From NCBI GenBank assembly GCA_964016885.1, contig OZ024743.1, forward strand, positions 6,138,001-6,202,000: a stretch of 64,000 bases of DNA, given 5' to 3'. The DNA comes from Eledone cirrhosa. Lineage: Eukaryota. This document shows positions 811-56,382 of the stretch, piece after piece; position 1 is the first letter of the stretch; each line of letters opens with the position of its first letter. Both the position numbers and the translations under genes were made by a program. The notes below the pieces were generated by a model, which ran no database searches, was not told the origin of the DNA, and saw only the letters and a list, made by a program, of their open reading frames with translations.

Positions 811-845
811 ATATATATATATATATATATATAGGAACAAGTAAG

Positions 846-940
846 ACCCCGACGGCTGAGCTCAAGCCGTTTCGACGGCTAATTCTGTACTGAATGAAAA
901 ATTAATTCTGGTATTTAAATAGCCGAACTTATCAAGGGGT
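846..940 (-). ncRNA. Type I hammerhead ribozyme, variant core UUGAUAA (U3-A8)
   Basis: Reverse complement of 3428-3522; same sense as the PLE ORF. Confidence 0.75.
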
Positions 941-2123
941 AATTCCATATATGGTCAAAGAGATAATCACCAGGATTGGTCACATCACAAGTTAGTAGTA
1001 AATCTGTGATGGCAAGTTGGTGGGGGAAGGGGTAGCTAAACCTGCCAGTAGGAGAAAAGGGGAGAGGGGGTGGAGTAGACCCATTCATGCGTTGGTAGTG
1101 CCAGCTACAGCTGGGTGTGAGGTCAAAGAGGATACTGGGGAGGGGGAGGGGGAGGTCGAAACGGTAAGTAGAACAATGATAGGTAAAACTGTAAAAGGTA
1201 CTGAGAGAGAAAAAAAATATAAGCAAAATCTGGTTACTAAGATTTAAGTCTCTTGCTATTGCTAGGCTGAAGAAATACATAAATAAATAAATAAACAAAT
1301 AAGTGAATAAAAGAATAGATAAATAAATTTAAAAATATATATATATATATATATATAATGTAGAATAAAAAAATAAATGATAATAATAGAAAAAAAAACT
1401 AGGTGGGACGGAAATAAAGGTACCCTTATACGAGGTATAAGTGCGTGTATTGTACGGTGACGGGTCAACAAAAGTGGGGCCAGAATACTAAAGAGACTAC
1501 CACGAAAATAATAAAGGTTTCCACCCCAAACACAGGGCCAGCAACCACCCAGTGCAAGAAAGTAAACTAGTACGAGAATATAATTCAGGGTCCCGCAAAA
1601 AAATACTGGTGCTAACTCTAAGGGTACCGCCACGAAACAAAAGGTCTTATACAAGCTACATGAAAGATCGTACGAAGTAAAAGTAAAGAACGGAAAATTA
1701 ATACAGGAACCCCCCCCCCCCCCCCCAAAAAAAAAGGGAAAAAGAAAAAAGAGATACTGGATAAACGAGAAATTAAAGCAAAGATGCCACTAAGAAATAT
1801 AGAAGGCACGGAAAAAGGTGACAGCGGTCGGAGAAGGGGGCGAGTATCCGAAATCTAACACCTCTGCTATAAAAAGCGGAGTCAGCCACATCTATCATAG
1901 AATAGGGGAGGGGGTGGGGGTGCTGAAGCTACAAGGGACCGATGGGCTACCTCGGGTGGGCGAGAAAGAGACAACGACAAAGAAAGGGAACTGGGGTAGA
2001 AGGACTAGGGAGGGATGGGGGGAAGGAGGAAATATAGAGGAAGCGATAAAAGAATGTAAAAGAAGATCTTACGTCTCCATAGGCAAGCAGGGGTTACCCA
2101 TTACAAAGTAGGCAAGTGGGGTG

Positions 2124-3195
2124 TTATAGCCCTAGGCTACCCCCCGGATCATTATGGGGTTTGAGGGCGAGGTAGGTCCTACGTAATCGGTGTTTACATG
2201 CAGTAACCAGTTCATCTTTCTTGTTTAGGAGTTGGTCCGTCGAAAACAACATTTGTAATGTTTCCTCCGAGCATAAATTGCACGGACGGCGTCCTCCCGT
2301 GTAAGAGTTGGCTCTGGACAGTAATTTCCAAGTGAGATCATAGTTGATGTTGTTGTCCTTGAGGTCCCATATGTGGCCCGAAAGTGTAGTGGCGTGACGC
2401 CGGGCCGGGTTTCGGAAGGTATGTCTGTGTTGGTATAGCCGGGTCTTGAAGTCGCATGCGGTTAATCCTATATAAGCTTTTTTGGAGGTGTCCGTGCTCA
2501 CGTTGCACTGGTAGATCACATTACGGTCTCTGCATCTGTTGTCGAGGGGGCAACCTGATCTATCAGGACAGTTGCACCTCCTGGTCGGCTCTCCACTGCT
2601 ATTTAGGTTGTTTCTTCCATCGGGGTTGAGTTTTTTGTTGTTGGAGGAGACGATGTTTTGTGCGAAGTTTGGTGTAGTGCTGTAAGAGAGTTTGATGGTA
2701 TTTTTGTTAATTATGTTGTGGTAGCGGTGTTGTGGTGGGAAGTGTTTTTCAATGAGCCTAAAGAAAATTTTCCCGATGGGAGTTGTCACCTCAGCGTTGT
2801 GGGGAGGATTGAACCATGTTACATTGCGTGAGCGGCGGTGTCGCCTGCTGGTTCCGCTAATGGGAGCTGGACAGTAGGATATTTCCTCCCGGAAACCACT
2901 CCGCTTGAGGGCCTGGTTGTAGTAAGGCGCATGTTCATCGAATATCTTCTCATTAGCTGACAAACGGGATATACGGAGGGAGATGTTTTTGACCAGGTTG
3001 TTGGTGATGTTCCTGGGATGGTTAGATCGGCGGTGGATGTAGTGCAGGTTGTCATTGGGTTTCCTGTATGGGTAGTACAGGTCATTATTGAGATCGAGGG
3101 TAACGTCCAGGAAATTAACTCGGGTCAGGGACGTTTGTAGGGTTATTTTAAATCCCCAATCGCGGAAGAAGCTGATTAATTGTTTACGGACCCGA
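2124..3195 (-). CDS. PLE polyprotein C-terminal part (RT thumb, WFNPP linker, CNC..CPL..C motif, GIY-YIG endonuclease), 5'-truncated
   Basis: Open frame ...VNFLDVTLDL..YRKP..SNHP..VTWFNPP..CNCPDRSGCPLDNRC..VIYQC..AYIGLT..FKTRLYQH..CNLCSEE. The frame extends upstream of the called Met to the inversion junction. Confidence 0.88.
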
Positions 3196-3427
3196 TCTAC
3201 TTACCGTTTCGACCTCCCCCTCCCCCTCCCCAGTATCCTCTTTGACCTCACACCCAGCTGTAGCTGGCACTACCAACGCATGAATGGGTCTACTCCACCC
3301 CCTCTCCCCTTTTCTCCTACTGGCAGGTTTAGCTACCCCTTCCCCCACCAACTTGCCATCACAGATTTACTACTAACTTGTGATGTGACCAATCCTGGTG
3401 ATTATCTTTTTGACCATATATGGAATT

Positions 3428-3522
3428 ACCCCTTGATAAGTTCGGCTATTTAAATACCAGAATTAATTTTTCATTCAGTACAGAATTAGCCGTCGAAACG
3501 GCTTGAGCTCAGCCGTCGGGGT
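3428..3522 (+). ncRNA. Type I hammerhead ribozyme, variant core UUGAUAA (U3-A8)
   Basis: acccc-TTGATAA-gttcggcta..tagccgtc-GAAA-cggct tgagctc agccg-TC-ggggt; stems I, II and III all pair. Confidence 0.78.
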
Positions 3523-3784
3523 CTTACTTGTTCCTATTACCCACTCTACTACCCAAAGTATTGAGTATTTTGGTGCGTTATGGTCCACCTGGTTCCTTAC
3601 CACATTTCCTTCGTTATATATATATATATTATAGTTGAGACAGTAAACAGAAAACAAAAAACAAAACAACGTGGAAGCGAAGAGGCAGTACAAATGTTAA
3701 TATTAGTTTCACGCTTGAGAGCGTGTGGTTGTGGGGGGGGGGGGCGTGTTTATATATATGCATTTTTATATATATATAAAAATA

Positions 3785-4880: not shown

Positions 4881-4953
4881 GGTCAGGTAGCTCAGTCGGT
4901 AGAGCAGCGGACCGGCAATCCGAAGGTCCTGGGTTCGATTCCCACCCTGATTA
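4881..4953 (+). pseudogene. tRNA-like sequence (Ala, GGC anticodon), probably a repeat-borne pseudo-tRNA
   Basis: 73-nt cloverleaf: acceptor ggtcagg/cctgatt, D arm gctc/gagc, A box, B box GGTTCGATTCC, TTTT downstream. It has C33 instead of U33 and mismatches in the anticodon and T stems. Confidence 0.6.
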
Positions 4954-6435: not shown

Positions 6436-7089
6436 TAATATATATATATGTCAATCAATTTCTAGTTGATATATGCGTGTATGAATTTTATTCCGTTCGG
6501 CAATTGAAACAGTGACCCCCACATTCACCGCGGCGTCCGTGATGTGACAGGCAGCAAAAGAGTCACTGACTGTGACGTCCCAGATGAGACACCTACCTCT
6601 CACCCAAGGAACACAGACACATAAATCCTCAATTTATTGTTTAACAATTTTTGTGAAGTTATTTAGAATCCGTTTCTCTGTAGTCTATTTTTTAATGAAA
6701 TGGTTTTTTCTTTATTGATGATTCACTTGTTTTATTCATTCTTATATTTGTACTCTTTTATATATATGCTATTTATATATATAGTTGTTTCTACTTTAGG
6801 CACAAGGCCAGCAATTATCCAGTGCATTACTGGTACTTTATTTATATATATAGTGTTGGAGCCATAGTAAAATGTACTCAGTGCACTCTGTAAGTAGTTA
6901 GCATTAAAAAGGATATGCCAAATATGTAATATACGTAGAAGTAGGTTCCCCGATTTGGCTAGTTTCAAACTGTGATGATTCAGTCAAACTACGGTGTTTG
7001 TAATCTTGTTCATACTAGTGTTGGCGTTGTTGGTGATTAATATATTTATGGGTTAGCAATTAAAGTAACTGTATTGCATTTAGTGTTGG

Positions 7090-17433: not shown

Positions 17434-17471
<38 letters not shown>

Positions 17472-17476
<5 letters not shown>

Positions 17477-18555
17477 TAAATCATGTCCTTAGAATTATTA
17501 GATAAACTATATACCATTTCCTCTCCCAATTAGCATAATTAACCATATAAAAAATCAATTAGACTAGGCTATAAGAATAAAGGCTCCTATGAAGAAATTT
17601 TCGACAAATAACCGAAAGCGGCCTCTTCACGGTGACCCCGATAGAGTATTTATCCAACATTTCAACAGCATGTAGAAACTGACTAAATATACCGTCAACC
17701 ATACACAATTAGGTGTAAATTCAAACTTAGAAGAAACGTGTACATACCGTAATTATATCTCTACCATGGTTTCGTCCGTATTTTTAGACATCCCATTATC
17801 AGGATATATCCAGAGTAACAGACTCATCAGGAGAGAACAAGATTTGGACAGTTAATTTTCCAAAGTGATCGCGCCAAAAATAGATTCAAAAATGGCTAAG
17901 AATCGTGACGTGGCAGTGGTCAAGTTAGAAAGAATGTGATTAGTTCTTTGTTAGGTTGAGATACAATTGGGCTATATTGGACTGCGCTTTCTAGCAACAA
18001 GCCTACCCGCCGTAAGCAACTAATCACATTCTTTCTAACTTGACCACTGCCACGTCACGATTCTTAGCCATTTTTGAATCTATTTTTGGCGCGATCACTT
18101 TGGAAAATTAACTGTCCAAATCTTGAGTTCTCTCCTGATGAGTCTGTTACTCTGGATATATCCTGATAATGGGATATCTAAAAATACGGACGAAACCATG
18201 GTAGAGATATAATTACGGTATGTACACATTTCTTCTAAGTTTGAATTTACACCTAATTGTGTATGGTTGACGGTATATTTAGTCAGTTTCTACATGCTGT
18301 TGAAATGTTGGATAAATAATCTATTGGGGTCACCGCGAAGAGGCCGCTTTCGGTTATTTGTCGAAAATTTCTTCATAGGAGCCTTTATCCTTATAGCCTG
18401 GTCTAATTGATTTTTTATATGGTTAATTATGCTAATTGGGAGAGGAAATGGTATATATTTTATCTAATAATTCTAAGGACATGATTTATGATATATTGCT
18501 CTGATTATTTAATTTATTAATTCTTCATTGAGCCACAACGTGACCGGTTGCCGCA
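17472..18555. mobile_element. Fold-back element: ~475-bp arms (17472-17945/18018-18493), 60-nt right extension, HHR in each arm
   Basis: Arms are near-perfect reverse complements; (TA)n flanks; no ORF. Confidence 0.88.
18131..18207 (+). ncRNA. Type I hammerhead ribozyme (minimal stem III)
   Basis: tctc-CTGATGA-gtctgt..acggac-GAAA-ccatgg-TA-gaga; mirror copy on the minus strand near 17758-17834. Confidence 0.82.
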
Positions 18556-31074: not shown

Positions 31075-31634
31075 ATTATAATAAATGTTCGGTAAACCCA
31101 TACGTGCATATATATATGTATACATGTATATATATACATACTACTGTACGTCTGTATACATATATGTATCTACGTGTACATACTTACATTTAAGTATCAG
31201 CCGTACTAAGAGTGAGAAATGAAATTTCGTTTCATCCTTTTCGATTTATATATATATATATATATATATTTAGAAACACACAGATACATGCGGACACACA
31301 CATATACATGAATGCATCCGCACCCAACCGTGAGTTAAGGGTGCCAACTTCACCGATGTTGCTCAATGAATGACTGGGACAGACCAATCCGGTTGAACTA
31401 GACTGAACCAGTATCAGAGTTTCCCTCTGGTCGAGCAACCTTTGAAGTGTGGGGACTGCTGAAAAGCTTCCATTACTCATACTTCTCGCCTCCTTCACCA
31501 CCTCTTCTACGGCTTCGATATAAATACCCCCTCCGCCTCCGTGGTATTTTCTTCGGGGTTATAAGAGGCTTAGCTCTGTTTCTCGACCGTTATATCGCGT
31601 GACTATCTCCCCTTCCGCCTTTTGGGATTCTTTC

Positions 31635-31836
31635 TCACGTCGTGTAGACGCGTTCTTGAGACTAGTAAAATGAGGTATCCTCTTGATAAGTCGGCAGACC
31701 TCGCAAGGACTCTATATCTTTATGATGTATTGTTTTTGTTTATGCCACGAAACTACGTAGTCGAGGAATCTAGGAGCAGTTTAGGTATGATACATTTTAT
31801 TACTAATTATATCTAAATGTTTCTTCTCTCTTCATA

Positions 31837-31880
<44 letters not shown>

Positions 31881-32074
31881 TATGAAGAGAGAAGAAACAT
31901 TTAGATATAATTAGTAATAAAATGTATCATACCTAAACTGTTCCTAAATTCCTCGACTACGTAGTTTCGTGGCATAAACAAAAACAATATATCAAAGATA
32001 TAGAGTCCTTGCGAGGTCTGCCGACTTATCAAGAGGATACCTCATTTTACTAGTCTCAAGAACGCGTCTACACG

Positions 32075-32080
<6 letters not shown>
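31635..32080. mobile_element. Palindrome of ~205-bp arms centred on (TA)n, with variant HHRs
   Basis: 31635-31840 is the reverse complement of 31877-32080. Confidence 0.88.
31678..31767 (+). ncRNA. Type I hammerhead ribozyme, variant core UUGAUAA (U3-A8), second family
   Basis: tcctc-TTGATAA-gtcggca..tgccac-GAAA-ctacgtag-TC-gagga; mirror copy at 31950-32037 (-). Confidence 0.8.
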
Positions 32081-35026: not shown

Positions 35027-38000
35027 TTTCTTTTATTTGCCACCAGGGCATCAAAATTGGGACAAGTACAATGGGGGGAGTTTACTAAACAAGGCGTCCT
35101 CAATAAGGAGGAGGCAATAACAATATATAAAAATAAAATAAAATATAACAAAAAATTAAATTTATAACAAAGTTCTCAATAGAGAGGAGGCGCCTTGGGG
35201 GGTCGCACACACCCCCGAAAAAAAAGTGTGCAACCCTTTTCCTCGGGAGCACAGAGAAGGGGTGCTCCCTTGGTCTTTCATCTTCCTCACCTATAGTCTG
35301 ATGTAGAGTGAAGGCCCATTCACACGGGCCATTCTCGCCACTTTCACCCATCTTTCATAAAAACGGCTGGGGTGCAGCACCTCTCTCTCCATCCTGATCC
35401 TTCTTCCGAAATGATATTGGAAGAAACGGACCAGTTGTTGGCCAGAGAGAAAGGTGTCTGACCTCAGTCCTTTCAGACGCGTCCACCATACAACCTCTTT
35501 CGCCATGGCTATTACGCACAGAAACACAGCCTCTTCTTCGTTTTTGAAGAGGGGAGGCGGCTTGATCGTTACAATAGACTCGGTGGTCAACCGGATCGGT
35601 CCCACCCTTGACAGCAGTTGTTCGACATAGCCCCACAGATCGGCAATGCCCGAGCAGTGTACCAATGCGTGTGCAACGGTTTCCTCATCGCACACGCATC
35701 TGGGACAGATCTTTTTCGAGGGGTCCCTACCCGGGCGCCCGTGTCTGTAGAGTCTTTCTCGAACGGGCAGAGCTCTTCTGTAGCATTGCCAGGCCAGGGA
35801 CCTCTGGAAGTTATCCATGGGTCCCGGGCTGAATGTCCTACCGAACAGGTTTGCCAGTTCGTCTTCCTCCATGCCTAGGGCTTCTCCGAGGGCGTCGTCG
35901 CACCTGCTAACCACCAGCCCTCTATAGAATGACGAGGTGGATTCTCCACTGACAGCCGGGTCCGCCTGCCAGAGAGCCGTGAGCGCCTGGGCACACTCGG
36001 TATGCCAGGCGCCCAGTTTTCTCGGTCTTTGCTTGACCCAGGATTGCAGCTCGGTGAGTGAGACGAGTCTGGGAAAGGCTCGCCTCACAAACGGGGCCCA
36101 CACCGGTTGACCGGAGAGGAATACCTGAAGGTGCCGTAGCCTTAATGCGTGTTTACGTATCATTAGCCACGGCATCCCCAGCCCTCCTTTCGAAGGGTGT
36201 TGACAGCAGATGGATCTCCTCACCATAGGAGCCCGCTTCTTCCAAAGGAATTGGAAGAGTGCGCGCTCCATTTTGGCGAGCGTTTCCATTGGGCAAGGCA
36301 CAACGGTCAGGCGGTAGTAGATGACGGACGCTATATAAGTGTTCGCCACCTCCGCCCGACCTTTCAGGGACAGTTTGCACTCGGCCCACTTCTGGGTCAG
36401 TGCAAACACCCTGTTCGTTACCTCACCCCAGTTCTTCTCCACCTGGAGGTCTGGTCCGAATCAGACCCCGAGCAACTTCACCGGGCCCTCCGTCCAGCGC
36501 CCGACGACGCCATCGGAGGGCATCGATCTGCCCCTCCACGTGCCGAGTTGCAGACCGATCGACTTGTCTCGGTTCAGCTTAGCCCCTGTAAACCTTTCGT
36601 ACTCCTCCAGTAAGGTGCCGATCGCCCCGATTTCCGAGGCCGTCGACACCATTACTGTTACGTCATCGGCGTAGGCTGACACCGCTTTCCGCAATCCCGG
36701 TTCCAACGGGATGCCCTGCAACAACTCCAACTTCCGCAGCAGTGGCTCTATAGTCATTACATACAGAAGGGAGGAGAGAGGGCACCCCTGTCGGATGGAC
36801 CGCGCGATTTCGAACGGCTCCGAGAGGTAGCCGTTCACCTTGACCCTAGAGCAGATGCGGCTGCTGTGCATGGCATTGATCCAGCCCCTGAAAACGGGTC
36901 CGAAGCCTGCCGCCGCTAGCACCGCATCCAGGTAACCATGGTCGACCCTATCGAATGCCTTAGATTGATCCAAGTTGATCAGGGCCCCACCAAAGCCGGG
37001 TTCGTTCCCAACCCTCTCTATGATGTATCGCATGAGGTGGAGGTTGTCGTGGATGGACCTGGACGGGATAGCACATGTCTGCGCATCTCCCACCAGGTTG
37101 CCCACGACAAGCGCCAACCTCTTTGCTAGCACCTTGGCCAAAATCTGTAAATCTGTATTTAGCAGAGTTATGGGCCTGAAATTATTTATATCGTCCCCCT
37201 TGTTCTCGTCCTTCCTCACTAGCGTGACTACGCCCTTGGTCACAGCACAGGGAATTCTCCCGTTCTGTTGACAGTTGCAGTAGACCGCCTCGAGGAGATC
37301 GGGGAACAAGTCCGGCATAGCTAGATATAGTTCGTATGGAAGACCATCGAGACCCGGGGATTTGCGTTTGCCGCATTGGATCAGCACGTCCTCTATCTCA
37401 GCGGCTGAAATCGGCTCCTCGCAGGACTTCGCCTCCCTGTCCGAGAGACGCGGCAGGCCGTCGAGGTATGGACCGAAGTCCACATCCCCAACCGGCTCCC
37501 CGCCCCTTCCGAACAATCCGGCAAAGTGCTTTTGAAAAGCCTCGCACATCTGCTTAGGTTCAAGGATCACCCGTCCATCCTGGTCTCGCAAAGACCGGAT
37601 AGTGGATCTGCTCCCTCTTTTGGCTTCTGTCACGCGGGCCCAGCTAACAGCTTTGGTCCCCTCGTTTCCCAAAGCACGTATTTTGCTTCGGACGATGCAG
37701 CCTTCGTGTTTCGCGTCGAAGAACTGGCCCAGGGCCGTTCTCGACGCTAGCACTCTGGCCACGTCGCCGCTTCTAATTGCCTCTTCTACACTATCTACCA
37801 ACTCCCTTTCCTTCCTATTTCTATTTGAGGCTAACTCCTTACTAAATTCTATAGAGACTACTCTAATCTCTCTTTTGAGAGATCCCCACCACCTGCTGTT
37901 GACGATGGCGCCCGTCAACCGCTCCTTAACTAAAGTGCTAATCCGGTCCCTGTAAGCCTTACTTGCCGGTAAGGACAAGTTGAGCTTCCAGTAACCGGGT

Positions 38001-38587
38001 CCCTGTCTAAGAGTTCTGTCAAGGTTGACCATGCAGGTCACTAATTTGTGGTCTGAATAGCCAACCATGCGCATTTTTGGACAACTTAAAAAGTCCTTAT
38101 CCTTAATTCTAACCAAGAACCTATCTAGGTACGACCTAGATGATCCGCTACGATTTGCCCAAGTCCAGGTTGGCGCAGTCGGAAAATCTAGTCGATATCT
38201 ATCGGCCAGGTCAAATCGACCGATTAACCCTTTGAGGCTATTACACCCCTCTCTATCGGGACAGGCCCCTACGTAGTCCCAGCGTGCATCTAGGATACCA
38301 TTCCAGTCCCCCACTAATAGCAAGGGGCGGGACGTCCCTAGAAAAGTCTCCAGACGATGGAAGAAGTCCGGCCGCATTGACCCGAAAGGGCCGTAGGCGG
38401 CTACCAACCTAAACGCTCCGCCTTTACCACTGCCAAGGTCCAGAACCACTAGTCGACCCTCCTGGTCCAAATGTACCATCTGTGTTGCGAGACCCAGATG
38501 TTTTTGCAGCAGAACGACAACCCCACCCCCACCTCCGGGCTGACAGAGAGATGCGTGCATCTGAAAGTCATCAAAGGTGGGGGTCAT
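35027..38587 (-). mobile_element. Tx1/L1-clade non-LTR retrotransposon, 5'-truncated within the endonuclease
   Basis: APE motifs (VGDWN, SYLDRF, SDH), RT (PGLDG, FRPITLLN, DQSKAFDRVDH, RQGCPLS, YADD), C-terminal CPRC..ETVAHALVHC, and a 3' UTR. Confidence 0.93.
35291..38587 (-). pseudogene. Tx1 ORF2 (EN-RT-Zn knuckle) with a single in-frame TGA at 36461-36463
   Basis: The two computed ORFs are in the same frame: KLLGV*FGPDLQVEKNW (expected LGVWFG). Confidence 0.88.
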
Positions 38588-38642
38588 ATATAGATAGATA
38601 GATAAATATACACGGGTGTGTATGATTGTGTATAGAAGATTA

Positions 38643-38801
38643 TATTAATAAGGGGAATTCCAACTTTGTCTGATTTACTCGTTTTATTTACAATCCTTTA
38701 AAATTTATAATGGTATTATAATGAAATAGTATGATACCATTATACATTTTAAAGGATTGTAAATAAAACGAGCAAATCAGACAAAGTTGGAATTCCTCTT
38801 A

Positions 38802-38846: not shown

Positions 38847-39181
38847 AAAACCACAGATGTGAGAAAAACCACAGACCCTCCATCTCAATTCTACTTTTGA
38901 AAAGCAGAAGAACTGCGAAACCGGTAAAGGAACCAAATAAATATATATATTTTTTTTAAAATAAGACTCCAGTTGCATTTTCGATTTCATCTTTTTTTCT
39001 TTATACTTTCACTCGTGTAGAACACCTCGGTTATTTTTCATTTTGTTAAAAAAAACCTCTTTCTAATATATATATATATATATATATAGTAATAATAATA
39101 AATTTGAAGACTAAAATCCAAAGAAGATTCCGTTAAGGGTGAAAGCAGCGATTCTTTGCTTAAACTTTAATCTGTTATTTT

Positions 39182-42544: not shown

Positions 42545-42588
42545 GGATAAATGAATAAAAAAACTTACAATAAAAAGAAACTACTTAC

Positions 42589-44475
42589 CTTGCTTTCTAT
42601 CTTTTACTGAGCCATATTCATCTGAGCGTTCGAAGGTAGTATATCCATCTTGAGTATCAACAAAAAGATTTGGGTTCGGTAATTGATGGTTATTATTTGT
42701 TAAATGTTGTTTGTTTAAATGATCATAATTTTGGTTAGCATGAATGTCAGTTTTGGAATTGTGGTTGCTTATCCCGAGGTCTAAAGCAGCCGCTCTATCA
42801 CCGATTACTTGTCGAACAGATGCACTGTCTTCCTTTCGCAGTGATGGCCTAACTTGTTGGTGAATGGAAGGACTTTTAAAATTGGATTGTTGCCCTTTAC
42901 GTTTTCGGGTAGCATGGTGGGAACCATCTATATCTCGATTGTTTGTTTGTCGTCTTTTACCATGATGGTAATTGGTAATATCATCTGTTTTTGAGTAAAC
43001 TGACTGGCTGTTTCCTTTCTCTCTCGTAGTATCTCGATGGCGATGAAGATTTTGCTGTACATTATGTTGGAGCCTACTGTCATGCCTATCAATTCTGCTG
43101 TCATGATCACTAGTTCTGTTGCGAATGTGTTCTCTTTGAGGAATTATTTCAGATCGTTCTTCTTTGTCACTAACATCAGGTTGAAACATGTTGAACTTTA
43201 TATCAACCGTCGGGACAGTTACAAGCTTTTCCTTAACAGCAGTTTCTTGGTTTTTATTACTATCTGTATATTCGCTTTGGGATGAAGATGTCGTAGATGC
43301 TGTCGTCCTAATCACATGACTTTCTTCACTCTCTTCTGGTTCCTCCCTATGTTCCTCTTTTCTTTGGTAGGGGTTGTATGGTTTTAAATCTTTGTCTGGT
43401 TGGACAGTATTTACATCTGTTCTGTTTTCAATAACTTCACTGTGTGGGATTTTTCGTTCATTTTCTATTGTCGAATCAAAAACTTCTTTTTTCGGAGGTT
43501 GAAGACCATCTCTTCCCGCATGTATGAAATACTGTCGATGGGAACTCTCTGGTCGGGTATCTATGAATGTTTCACTCTCAGGAGGATACTGACTGTTTGG
43601 AATTTCTGGTAAAGTATTTTCCACATTTTTTGAGTTGTGTTGCCGCCTATTTTCAAAGAAATAATCCTGTCCGTATGGCAAATAACCTTCGCCAGGTGGA
43701 ACCTGGAAGTGAGAACCATGATAATCATTGTCAGTTTCATAAGTTGGCAGCTGAGAATCAGGATAGTACTGATCAGGAATATCAACATTGTCTCTCTCTT
43801 CTACCAAAGCTGCACCATCCGGATATGTGGGGTAATGGGGCTGAATAAATCGGCCGTTATGATTCATTCCATGTTGACGGCCCTGGTTTAACCTACTGGG
43901 ATAACTAGGAACGTATCGAGTATCTCCGTCATAATTAGGTTCAAATTCCCCTCTCCCTGCGGGATCGATTTGACCGAATTGTGTTTGAACATTAGAGTTA
44001 GGATGATTTGGCACACGTTGTCCATTGAGAAAATATTCTCCATAATGTATTTGACCGGATGGATCCCGGTTTAAAATAGGGAGATGCTGATTTTGTCTAA
44101 AATTAGATATTTGTGGGTTTCCACCCCTCGGGTATTCTCTACCTGCTCCATAACCGTAATGTGGGAGTACATGTCTATTATCTGATTCCTGTAAACCAGT
44201 TTGTGCTGCATTCTGTTGCTTATATTCACTCAAAAATTTGGGTCCTTCTTTAACGACATAGTATCGACGTGTAGTGGAATGTCCACCTCCTAAGTCATCA
44301 CGGTAAGTATTTCCATTACGATAACCATTTTTTTCGTTTTTACGGTAATCAACCTGATCCGGATACCGAATAACTCCTTCTCGACTTAACTGCGATTGCC
44401 AGTATGCATTAGAACCTTGTAATTGTTGACGGTCTTTACTTCTAGACAGGTCTCTCTCAATCTGACACGATGCAT
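42589..44475 (-). CDS. Host gene giant exon (1887 nt, phase 1-1): low-complexity Y/G/N/Q/P-rich, then acidic and R/H-rich
   Basis: 629 uninterrupted codons in AT-rich DNA, ttttcctttctcaag acceptor, CAAG|gtaagt donor; no TE motifs. Confidence 0.85.
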
Positions 44476-44769
44476 CTTGAGAAAGGAAAAAAGAGGTTAT
44501 ATGTATTTTAATATATATATATATATATATATTAAAATACAAATATTAATAAAATAGATGTTCTTTTGATCAATTACATTTTATTATACATATTTCGGAT
44601 GTACAACCATTTAACATCTCCGGGTATGTCATGTATCATTATATTTTGTCTGATGAGGACGTACTGTTGAAAATTATTTTACCATAGAGTGCTTCCAATC
44701 TACTGTAAAACTCATTCTTTGATATACTCATTGAATCTTGTTTAACTCTTTAATATATATATATATATA

Positions 44770-45596: not shown

Positions 45597-45642
<46 letters not shown>

Positions 45643-45650
<8 letters not shown>

Positions 45651-47540
45651 CGACAGAACCATTACAATTAAAGAGGATGATAAAGGGAGTACAGTAGTCC
45701 TAATGGAGATAGAATTCTATATCAACTTAGCGCTCTCCACTTTGGAAAACGAAACATACTACGAAAAGGCTGAACACTACAATCAACAGAAAATTATGAG
45801 AAACCTAAAAACTCTGATCAACCAATACAAAGAAGGACTCACTAACAAGGAATTCAGCTTCATCACAGACTTCACAAGTAAATCCAGCCTTTTCTACGGT
45901 ATCCCTAAAGTACATAAATAAGTAAGGCATGCAAGGAAGCCACAGACATAGTCATCAATGTCCCCTCACCCAATGATCTCAAATTAAGACCTATAATAGC
46001 AGGCCCCGCTTGCGAAACCCATCGCCTTAGCAACTTCATTGACACCCTTCTCAAGCCTTTTCTCAAACACATCAAAAGCTATATAAGGGACGACCTAGAT
46101 ATGCTCAATCACCTCCCTAATATGCCCCTTTCTGAACAAACCCTACTAGTGACGTTCGATGTAGTCAACCTATACTCCAACATCCCCACAACCTAGGAAT
46201 AGAAGCTATCCAATTCTGGCTGGATAATTACCACAATTAACTCCCACAACGCATCAAAAAAGAATTCGTGATAGAGGGACTCAAATTTATCTTGGAGAAC
46301 AATTACTTCGTTTTCAATAACAAACCCTACAGGCAGAAATCTGGGACCGCTATGGGAACGAAAACAGCCCCCACTTATGCCAACCTAGTCATGGGATACC
46401 TGGGAATCACCCTCTACACTAAAGTACTAAACACATTTGGAAACACTCTCCACTTACACATAGAAAGGAACTGGAAGCGATATCTAGATGACTGCTTCAT
46501 CCTTTGGCACGAAAACATCGAGAAACTTAAAGAATTTCACACCCTTATAAATGGGCTCAACACGAATATTAACTTCACGATGGAATACAGTCATCAACAA
46601 CTCCCCTTCCTCGACATTCTCATTAAGATCCATAACAAAAAATAGAAACAGACATATACTACAAGCCCACAGACTCCAAGCAATATCTTCCTTTCAACTC
46701 TTGCCACCCTAGACACGTTAAAATTAATATTCCCTACAACTTAGCCAAGAGAATCTGTACTATAGTCTCCAATAAAAACACCTGTTACTTACGGCTACAA
46801 GAACTAAAGGACACACTCATAGGCAGGGACTACCCTGCATCACTAATTGACAATGGAATCCAACGTGCCCTAAAACTCAGTACCCAGGACCTTAGACACA
46901 TTAAAGTAAATCAACCGAAACTAAAAGCTCTTCCATACATCTCCACACACAACCCCCTCAATAATGAGGCCTTTGACACCATCCTCCAGAACATCCCTGT
47001 GTTAAAAAAGGACCATAGAATGAACCAAATCCTACGAACACACGATATCATAAAGAGCCAAAGACAATTAAGTCAATGAAAAACATCCTAACACATGCCA
47101 AAGTACTGCCAACCACAACAACGAAACCCACAGTAAAAAAATGCGATAGACCCAACTGTGGCATATACATCAACCTAATAGAGGGTTCGGAATTCTATTT
47201 CAAAGAAGGACAACGTTTTATAGTAAAACACAATTTCACATGCGCATCAGAAAATCTAATATATGTATTAACTTGCTCAGATTGTCGAGAACAATACATA
47301 GGCCAGACTAAAATCAGCCTCCGCCAACGCATGACTGTCCATAGATCCCAAATTAAAATACGGGAATACAGGAAAATACCACTGAGTGAACACATTCATA
47401 CCTGTGCCGCCCCAAATCATCCCAACTTCAGAATCTTTCCCCTCTACAAATTTAAAGATAATGCCACCCACACCCAGCGCATCAGCAAGGAATCTCACTT
47501 TATTAACAAATACGGACCCCGTCTAAACACTTCTCCCTAA
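45643..47540 (+). pseudogene. Penelope-like (Neptune-like) RT + GIY-YIG ORF, 5'-truncated, with frameshifts and stops
   Basis: IKEDDKG, FYGIPKVHK, LRPII, FDVVNLYSNIP, QKSGTAMG, RYLDD, LPFLD, Cys linker CDRPNC, NLIYVLTC..QYIGQT. Confidence 0.9.
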
Positions 47541-52896: not shown

Positions 52897-55800
52897 ACCC
52901 CATCTCCCCCCCGCCCCCCACCACCCCCACCCTCCAAACGCAATCCAAAACTTCAGAGTTGGTACCATAAATATAGGCACCCTAAAGGGTCGCGCTAACG
53001 AGGTTGTAGAAATGCTTGAACGTAAGGAGGTCGATGTTTGTTGTATTCAAGAGACCAGGTGGAGGGGTGGGTCTGCTAGATTCATTGAGGGTAAAAAACG
53101 ATGTTATACGCTTTTCTGGGTGGGAAACGACGATGGGCTGGGTGGAGTAGGAATCATGGTAGCAGAAAAGTGGGCAGATAAGATAATAGACGTAAATAGA
53201 GTGAACGACAGAATAATTAAAATACGACTTGTCCTCAATAGAACTACGGTGACAGTAATATCTGCGTACGCACCCCAATCCGGACTGCCCGGCACTATAA
53301 AAGACAGATTCTATGAGACACTGTTGCTAACTACCTCCCAAATATCTGACAGTGACTATATAATTATTGCAGGCGACCTAAATGGTCACGTTGGACAACA
53401 TTGTGACGGCTACGACGAAATCCATGGAGGCTATGGGTTTGGTACTAGAAATGAAGAAGGCTCCAGAATCCTGGAATTCTGTGATGCAAATAACCTAACT
53501 ATCTGTAACACTAACTTCAAAAAACGTGACAATCACCTGATCACCTATAGATCCGGGGAACACACAAGCCAGGTAGATTATATCCTTACCAGAAGACGTG
53601 ACAGAGTGTCTGTTGTAAACACTAAATCCCTCCCCCATGAAGAATGCACCTCCCAACATAGACTGATAATTAGCGACCTCATAGTCAGGACGAGACGTAC
53701 TCGACAGCAGAAGAGGACTATCCTCAGGAGAAAAATATGGAAGCTAAAGGACCCCACAGCCAAAAATAAATTTCAAAACATATTACTTGATGCTTTCGAC
53801 AGTAAGGAAGAACATTTAGAGTCGGACAATATAGAGGGACAGTGGGAATTTCTGAAAGCAAACCTGCTGTTGGCGACAGACGAAGTCTGTGGCTGGAGCA
53901 GGCCTGTAGGCAGGAGGAGAGTAACATGGTGGTGGAACAGTAAGGTGGAGGGGTCAATTAAGGCCAAAAAGCAGGCTTGGAAAGTATGGCGGGATGGGGG
54001 AAGTAGAGTAGACTATCAAGTGGCCAGGAGGGAAGCTAGGAGAGAAGTGTACTTAGCAAGAAGGGAAGCTGAGGAAAGAAAGTTCAAGCATGTTCTACAA
54101 CGCGATGACCAAAAACGTGAGGTGTTCAGGATTGCTAGGCAATGCGTCAAGGAAAACCGTGATATTGTCGGGGAGAAGTGTGTACTTAACGATGATGGCA
54201 TACTTGCCATCACCGACGCTGATAAGAAGGTAGCTTGGAAGTGTCACTATGAAAGGCTACTAAATGAGGAGAATAAATGGGAGAAAGACAGTCTCCCCCA
54301 TATCGACCCAATAGAGGGACCAGCAGTGTTAGTCGAGGGGAGTATAATAAGTAAGGCAATCAAGGATATGAAGACGGGTAAGGCGGCTGGGCCTTCGGAA
54401 ATAGTTGCTGAGATGCTGAAGGCATCTGGCACGGTGGGACACACCATGGTCACCCGCATAGTTAACCAAGTCGTACAGAATGGGGTTGTTCCGAAGGACT
54501 GGCATAGCAGCATCATCATTAACTGTTATAAGGGTAAAGGAGACGCCCTAGATAGGAGTAACTATAGAGGCATTAAATTAATCGACCAGGTCATGAAGGT
54601 CACGGAAAAAGTAATAGCGCAACTAATCAGAGAGAGAATTGACCTAGATGAAATGCAGTTCGGGTTTGTGTCAGGCAAAAGTACCACAGACGCTCTTTTC
54701 ATAGTACGACAACTACAGGAGAAGTTCCTAGCTAAAGGTAAACCCCTCTACTTAGCTTTTGTCGACCTGGAGAAAGCCTTCGACAGAGTCCCCCGCTCCA
54801 TTATCTGGTGGGCTCTTAGAAAACTAGGCGTTGACGAATGGCTTGTGAGGGCTATACAAGCCATGTATAAAGAAACAGTCAGCAAGGTTAGAATTAACAA
54901 CGAATATAGTGAAGAGTTTAGCGTAAAAGTTGGCGTCCATCAGGGCTCTGTTCTCAGCCCCCTACTATTTATTATTGCCCTTCAGGCTATAACAGAGGAG
55001 TTCAAGACAGGCTGCCCATGGGAACTCCTATACGCAGACGACCTGACACTCATAGCGGAATCAATGGCCGAGCTAGAGAAGAAATTCCAAACATGGAAGC
55101 ACGGCCTAGAGTCAAAAGGACTTAAAATTAACCTGGCTAAGACCAAAGTTCTAGTTTGTAGGAAAGAAAACAAGGCGGCGGTCCCTTCTGGGAAATGGTC
55201 GTGCTCGGTGTGTAGGAAAGGCGTAGGTAGAAACTCCATTTTATGTCCTAAATGCAAAGTATGGGTGCATAAAAGATGTAGTGGGATCACAGGTAAGCTA
55301 ACTAAGAACATAGATTTTACATGTGGCCGGTGTTCTGGTGCAATAAGTAGCAGCAAGTGCCCACAAAATACTAGCTCTTTCAATGGCGCAGAGGGTCCTA
55401 TAGAAATAGTGGACAGCTTCCGTTACCTGGGCGATAAAATCAGCAGTGGGGGAGGGTGCTCTGAAAGTACTGTAGCTAGAGTCAGAACTGGTTGGAAAAA
55501 GTTCAGAGAGCTTATACCACTATTAGCTGCTAAAGGGTTCTCCCTAAAAATGAAAGGCAGGTTGTACGATGCCTGCATACGAACAGCAATGTTGCATGGC
55601 AGTGAGACCTGGGCATTGTGTGCAGAGGATATACGCAGACTAGAGAGGAACGAAGCTTGCATGCTCCGCTGGATGTGTAACAGTAATATACGTGAACGGC
55701 AAAGCATAAACGAACTAAGGAAAAAATTAGAGATAAGAGGGATCAGATGTTGTTTACTCGAGAGAAGGCTACGTTGGTATGGACACGTGATGCGCATGAA

Positions 55801-56382
55801 AGTCGATAGCTGTATAACAAAGTGCAGGGCAATAAAGATAGACGGTAGTCACGGAATAGGCAGACCTAGAAAAACCTGGGACGAGCTGATAAACTCCGAC
55901 ATCACACACTTACACCTATCCAAGACAATGTCACTGGACCGAGACCTTTGGCGGTACTCAGTAACAGAGAAGACCCGCCTTACCTAAATATATAGTAAAA
56001 CCTACTCCAGCCAGTAGGCATCTCTAACAAAATACACCCCGTCCCACCACCACCACCCCATCCACACCACCCCATTCTATGTAAAGTTATGTTGGTGCCG
56101 CGCCATCCAGGCCGAAACAAATGAGATCATGTAGGTGTCACGACAAAAAAACACACAGTCCACGCTGTAATGTGGCCGTGTAGGCAACACGGTAAAAACC
56201 TCCCAGACCCACACTGTAAATGTGGTTGGTGTTAGGAAGGGCATCCAACTGTAGAAAACCTGCCAGACAGTCCTATGCGAGCAAGACAATCACTCTTGCC
56301 TCAAGTGGGACTACCCCCGTCCAAACCCATGCAAGCGTGGAACACGGACGTTAAACGTTGATGATAATGATGATGATGATGA

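Follow-up and report, generated by a model that had tools for sequence, protein, structure and literature searches.

A hammerhead motif with a U3-A8 core in a probable retrozyme-like, non-autonomous Penelope-like element of Eledone cirrhosa

Metazoan non-LTR retrozymes are described as non-coding tandem units with one type I hammerhead each (PMC7229834; bioRxiv 10.64898/2026.07.22.740005); according to PMC7229834 they reach thousands of copies in genomes that also carry autonomous Penelope-like elements (PLEs), have monomers of ~170-400 nt, a GC content under 45% and a classical 4-bp stem II, and accumulate as circular RNA, and the preprint argues that retrozymes derive from PLE pLTRs. The PLE signature itself comprises two fixed ends, inverted 5′-truncated copies, and microsatellite targets (PMC8557442; PMC11167929), with a tail of 30-40 nt that is made by two reverse transcriptase (RT) start sites (PMC11167929). 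Nor is the canonical C3-G8 core the only one on record: the U3-A8 core was published by Perreault in 2011 and, for Schistosoma mansoni PLEs, by Cervera and de la Pena in 2014 (PMC4209133); it is natural and active in vitro (PMC3088659), and the S. mansoni PLEs carry ~1,300 U3-A8 motifs, in a paper that also describes low, dimer-dependent activity (PMC4209133).

A sequence-only reading of the window studied here (the whole 64,000-nt stretch of Eledone cirrhosa DNA that was analysed) had placed a U3-A8 hammerhead at 31678-31767, had judged it to be unrelated to a family with the same core at 833-3615 (below, the 833-3615 family), and had taken the shared core as the mark of one PLE lineage. The motif and the element that carries it are laid out as follows.

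31678..31767, + strand: type I hammerhead with U3-A8 core (sequence; descriptor scan against shuffles; subfamily comparison)
31678-82 with 31763-67, + strand: stem I (TCCTC/GAGGA, 5 bp)
31683-89, + strand: core TTGATAA (U3, A8)
31690-96 with 31743-48, + strand: stem II (6 bp), with bulged C31692 after two pairs
31703..31739, + strand: hairpin within loop II that lengthens stem II (MFE, both subfamilies)
31749-52, + strand: GAAA core segment
31752..31761, + strand: palindromic helix III, the predicted contact of two motifs in a dimer (duplex energies)
after C31762 (C17), + strand: predicted cleavage site, UC
31422..31842, + strand: element body, unit positions 1-421, ending at the first fixed 3′ end by (TA)n (99% identity to the 593-nt unit of locus L017)
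31264..31421, - strand: inverted 5′-side piece, unit 426-583, bounded by (TA)n at the second fixed 3′ end (100% identity to the unit)
31875..32080, - strand: second inverted copy, 5′-truncated (unit 214-421), bearing a separate U3-A8 motif whose core is at 32032 (-)

On re-reading, the letters of the motif are as first given and all parts are in place. Three helices surround the core and the structure is open at helix I, as in type I hammerheads, with a Watson-Crick 3-8 pair, GAAA, U16.1, and H17. Searched with a hammerhead descriptor, the window has 8 loose and 4 strict matches, whereas any one of 20 dinucleotide shuffles of the same sequence has 0 or 1 loose match and no strict one; the motif is real and not a product of chance, as had been claimed. 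An Rfam scan of 31600-31830 returned no hammerhead family at E<=10, for which the long loop II and the variant core are the likely cause, and a whole-window Rfam scan dominated by simple-repeat matches returned no hammerhead among the 150 of 275 matches listed. The description of a bulge two pairs into stem II survives for the 31678 motif (C31692) but not for the 833-3615 copies in the window, which have U.U mismatched at the second pair of stem II; in that family only the GAT subfamily has a clean bulge after two pairs.

The motif belongs to an abundant repeat. A 14-mer over core and stem II matches exactly at 6,689 sites of the 3.0-Gb genome (control, 11), and the repeat unit is 591-593 nt long, non-coding (longest stop-free stretch 86 aa), 43% GC, and found singly or in tandem arrays of 2-5 units, the longest same-strand run being the 5 units of L083. 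Its copies are scattered across many contigs and include inversions and 5′ truncations, and all three pieces in the window (31264-32080) sit between (TA)n tracts. Of the deduplicated 3′ ends, 102 border (TA)n: 55 of them at unit positions 410-430, 43 at 570-593, and 4 elsewhere, so that 98/102 fall at two positions, whereas the 5′ end differs from copy to copy. Such a pair of fixed 3′ ends, together with inverted, 5′-truncated copies and microsatellite targets, is what a PLE-mobilised element should exhibit, and supports the suggestion that the element derives from PLEs; the gap between the two 3′ ends, ~165 nt, is longer than the 30-40 nt of the PLE tail (PMC8557442; PMC11167929). Judged by its sequence organisation, the repeat is likely a non-autonomous, retrozyme-like PLE. 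By eye, L017:1860-1950 (unit about 360-450), downstream of the motif, contains a GTATGA donor-like site, a pyrimidine tract, TTAAC, and CAG, signals reminiscent of the short spliceosomal introns that PLEs can carry.

We were unable to find the autonomous parent that the sequence-only reading had expected. In 80 loci (30 best matches of the young subfamily, 20 singletons among the first 100 matches listed, and 30 matches of the older subfamily) the unit never runs into an open reading frame (ORF) and only the same non-coding unit recurs; no RT plus GIY-YIG ORF between pLTRs, the mark of an autonomous PLE, is present in them, and PLE ORF fragments near 9/80 loci proved to be separate insertions. 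When the masked unit was compared with 1.6 Mb of PLE-rich loci, a search of less than the whole genome, the 25 best matches were all simple-repeat. Because the family encodes no protein, it has no RT to place on a tree and cannot be assigned to a clade.

Genomic copies, once collected, proved faithful to the motif: TTGATAA, GAAA, and TC are unchanged in 111/119 deduplicated copies. An older subfamily, ~78% identical to the young one, has the same unit junction and ends, and the majority letters of the two subfamilies (from 78 young and 41 old copies) differ at 0/44 core and stem sites but at 113/549 sites elsewhere (Fisher p 9e-5), implying that the motif is under selection. The invariance of the stems also explains why no double-sided covariation is seen in the 591-593-nt family. 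In the loop II hairpin at 31703-31739, scored in 10 hand-picked copies, 92% of cells are paired and 6/15 pairs vary one-sided and 0 two-sided, which is not above the shuffle control. Helix III is palindromic, and as a 10-bp self-duplex it is predicted to be stable (-12.9 kcal/mol), whereas as a 3-bp monomer hairpin it is not (+1.5 kcal/mol); cleavage is therefore predicted to occur as a dimer, and palindromic helix III with dimer pairing has been described for PLE hammerheads (PMC4209133).

The reading we prefer, to which we give a probability of roughly 0.8 on sequence grounds, is that RNA read through tandem copies pairs two motifs via helix III and cleaves after C17, and that a PLE RT-endonuclease copies the product into (TA)n. 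Specifically, i) read-through transcripts of tandem copies would bring two motifs together through the palindromic helix III; ii) the dimer would cut after C17 to yield unit-length RNA, possibly circularised; iii) a PLE protein would start reverse transcription at either of two internal positions, one 76-82 nt and the other ~240 nt beyond the cut, and these two start sites would account for the two fixed 3′ ends and the inverted 5′-truncated pieces; iv) the enzymes, presumably those of autonomous PLEs, would copy the unit into TA repeats; and v) U3-A8 would be an equivalent Watson-Crick swap with several gains or reversions in this genome, the probable intermediates being U3.G8 or C3.A8. A long predicted hairpin at 31763-31840, past the cleavage site and ahead of the first 3′ end, occurs in both subfamilies and is a candidate RT-binding or initiation signal.

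Comparison with the other U3-A8 families calls for the following features of the window, the last of which had been missed at first.

3428..3521, + strand: U3-A8 motif of the 833-3615 family (Hydra-clade PLE), used as comparator
935 (-), 22838 (-), 24972 (+): further U3-A8 cores of the 833-3615 family
38892..38932, + strand: motif of a third U3-A8 family, a Neptune/Nematis-type PLE, with a 4-bp stem II and no bulge

The 833-3615 family is autonomous, with a 3,531-nt tandem unit, a 784-codon frame carrying RWR, DKT, and CxCx5C motifs, (TA)n targets, and 7,001 genome matches to its motif pattern. These protein motifs define the Hydra clade (PMC8557442), and by them the family is Hydra-clade rather than Neptune. 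About 1,800 copies of the family have C3, combined with A8 in 99 of the first 100 (a mismatch) and with G7 in 94 of the first 100, making a shifted C3-G7 register conceivable; among the sampled C3 copies (e.g. L223, L224, and L228, relatives of window 831-3615), 8/9 form one clade.

Could the 591-593-nt family have arisen long ago by deletion from a forerunner of the 833-3615 family, with a shared origin of U3-A8 and the variant also arising elsewhere? We regard this as less likely than not. Both families insert in (TA)n, their stem II arms look alike by eye, and a 5′-side bulge after two pairs is confined to these two among 22 motif clusters (10 U3-A8 and 12 C3-G8, drawn from 215 scan matches in sampled loci and thus a biased sample with overlaps; two of the 10 U3-A8 clusters are homologous, one is poorly formed, and 8/10 lack this bulge). 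Their stem similarity score of 1, however, ties with that of an unrelated C3-G8 family, and flank alignments stay at shuffle level for both subfamilies: the 591-593-nt unit scores 24 against a shuffle mean of 31, with 284/300 shuffles as high, and the older subfamily 32 against a mean of 32, the core being kept fixed in these shuffles. Blastn and tblastx of the unit against the 3,531-nt unit gave nothing below E 0.019. The initial impression of no visible similarity thus holds statistically, and by sequence comparison the families have no detectable homology. Such a descent would be compatible with the dimer-cleavage reading and would alter only the number of origins.

Rather less probable is that the motif is conserved because it serves PLE enzymes as a signal for protein binding or folding, cleavage not being needed. 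It is a live rival because cleavage is dispensable for insertion in vitro, catalytic mutants having had no effect (PMC11167929). Folding predictions also lean this way: with 160-420 nt of context the stem I pair probability is 0.0, stem I giving way to a GAGG/CCUC hairpin on its upstream side and a long one downstream; the half-dimer fold (-56.4) also lies above the cofold minimum (-60.9). So do abundant autonomous families whose cores are expected to be impaired (C3.A8; GCAA, in 19/19 rows; CAGAAGA). Against it, all core positions and three helices are unchanged across ~20% divergence, as expected for catalysis. When the inverted copy at 31875..32080 is included in the fold, every stem I and II pair has a probability of 0.0; in this model, read-through into the inverted copy would lock the first motif, and the copy at 31422..31842 is probably inert.

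Two of these odd-core families are present in the window. A young Neptune/Nematis-type family at 45640-47540 (also L221, L222), with many intact 784-codon frames, has a U3-A8 motif with GCAA for GAAA in all its rows from the sampled loci, and an abundant Hydra-type family at 39122 (also L034, L041, L108; 23 rows) has the core CAGAAGA, with A at position 4 and U.U as first stem II pair. Canonical C3-G8 hammerheads of four further families lie at 17469-18496, 22533, 25839/28280, and 57510. Pfam gave no match for 4/6 PLE fragments of the window. Near-intact APE-RT frames at 52898-55987 (+; 1,029 aa) and 35291-38644 (-; 727+389 aa) we take to be LINE-type; a 654-aa stop-free frame at 42581-44545 (-), Q/N/H/Y-rich and by eye not a transposon, is probably a large host exon; and a tRNA-like match of 57 bits at 4881-4953 (+) is perhaps a SINE head. 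Elsewhere in the genome, classical 316-nt tandem retrozyme-like families (L119, L107, L120, L102; G000:C1:6519951-6521556 and others) have a U3-A8 core and a 4-bp stem II covarying among them, and 31 same-strand C3-G8 hammerhead units with ~466 nt spacing and an inverted copy at the end occupy G000:C1:5738331-5752439.

The proposal that U3-A8 marks one PLE lineage containing both families fares worse, and we consider it very unlikely. The two families do share a 5′ bulge, a G/C-rich stem I, C-G at 15.2-16.2, and a UC cleavage site. Mapping the core type onto an RT tree, as the sequence-only reading had advised, went against its expectation, however. The tree comprises 14 proteins (5/19 fragments, under 450 aa, and published Hydra proteins were left out; N* labels denote Hydra-type and P* Neptune/Nematis-type), and its deepest split, a 100/100 branch, separates the Hydra from the Neptune/Nematis-type clade with U3-A8 on both sides; the 38892-38932 motif follows an RT-EN ORF of GxKF/DKG/Cx4CxxC type (Neptune or Nematis) in L035 and L045. 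Within the Hydra clade the 833-3615 family groups with the C3/G8 family N3 at 83/93, the families N4 and N5 of the same genome are C3-G8, and 26/26 Hydra rows in File S2 of PMC8557442, rows found with the canonical descriptor, are C3-G8. An AU test of 12 proteins did not reject a single clade of the U3-A8 RT families (p 0.164), because the Hydra root is unresolved; the constrained group contained P3, the protein of L101-L104, whose own motif (TTGACAA) was not counted as a hammerhead, its stems I and III being unconvincing. A possible second U3-A8 Hydra-type family, L118, has 3 matches only and no usable RT.

The single-lineage proposal is largely refuted by two homologous pairs that differ at positions 3 and 8: L116 and L130 are 67% identical over 89 nt with a covarying stem I (score 74, shuffle maximum 55), and L107 and L126 are 75% identical over 182 nt with weaker stems (score 184, shuffle maximum 56). 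Other candidate pairs fell short or were weak: GTAC/GTCC (33/300 shuffles as high), L117 (164/300), and L110/L127, which match on an AT-rich flank only. An intermediate U3.G8 is found in L292 beside U3-A8 in L293, within one small family, and the C3 copies of the 833-3615 family, nearly all with A8 among the first 100, supply the C3.A8 intermediate. With both families excluded, the U3-A8 pattern still has 11,314 genome matches against 4,790 for the control, with many distinct stem II sequences, and a comparable C3-G8 pattern has 17,950 against 822; the patterns are not symmetric, and the two abundances can be compared only as being of the same order. On this sequence evidence, U3-A8 recurs in many families of the genome, and its use as the mark of one lineage is not supported.

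A satellite origin, in which DNA-level recombination spread the repeat and the motif is a relic, can be dismissed. The tandem arrays that recommend it are outweighed by the dispersed copies, which sit in (TA)n, include inversions, and stop at two fixed 3′ positions but at varying 5′ positions, an end pattern that contradicts it, and by a motif more conserved than the rest of the unit.

How, then, does the 591-593-nt family compare with described systems? With non-LTR retrozymes (PMC7229834; bioRxiv 10.64898/2026.07.22.740005) it shares non-coding tandem units with one type I hammerhead each and, on the account in PMC7229834, thousands of copies, autonomous PLEs in the same genome, and a GC content below 45%; it differs in a unit longer than their monomers, in a U3-A8 core, and in a long bulged stem II in place of the classical 4-bp one. 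A short helix I, large helix II, and palindromic helix III are features that it has in common with the minimal/variant hammerhead of PLEs. In particular, the S. mansoni Cercyon hammerheads (Cervera and de la Pena 2014, PMC4209133) share U3-A8, a 5-bp helix I, an enlarged helix II, G10.1-C11.1, a palindromic helix III, and a predicted dimer; unlike the PLE variants of that paper, the motif here has no extra base between A9 and G10.1 but a bulge after 10.2 (the D. virilis hammerhead has a mid-helix bulge), and the family has no attached RT-EN ORF. Hydra-clade PLEs (Craig et al. 2021, PMC8557442) have (TA)n targeting and an inverted 5′-truncated structure in common with it, whereas the motifs published there are all C3-G8 and the present family is U3-A8 and encodes no protein. 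A literature search, with subscription journals and repeat databases outside its coverage, found no description of the family. We conclude that it is likely a new family, a retrozyme-like non-autonomous PLE with a core variant already published.

More tentatively, and at no better than modest odds, the genome may represent a natural experiment in which the 3-8 pair has flipped repeatedly and U3-A8 is about as common as C3-G8, and in which coding PLEs have spread with apparently broken cores (C3.A8, GCAA, CAGAAGA) while a non-coding hitchhiker keeps a perfect one. If this is true, cleavage would be essential for retrozyme-type elements and relaxed for autonomous PLEs. Standard CUGANGA descriptors would overlook a large fraction of this genome's hammerheads. 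The matched family pairs, together with the odd-core subfamilies, provide test material for what PLE hammerheads do.
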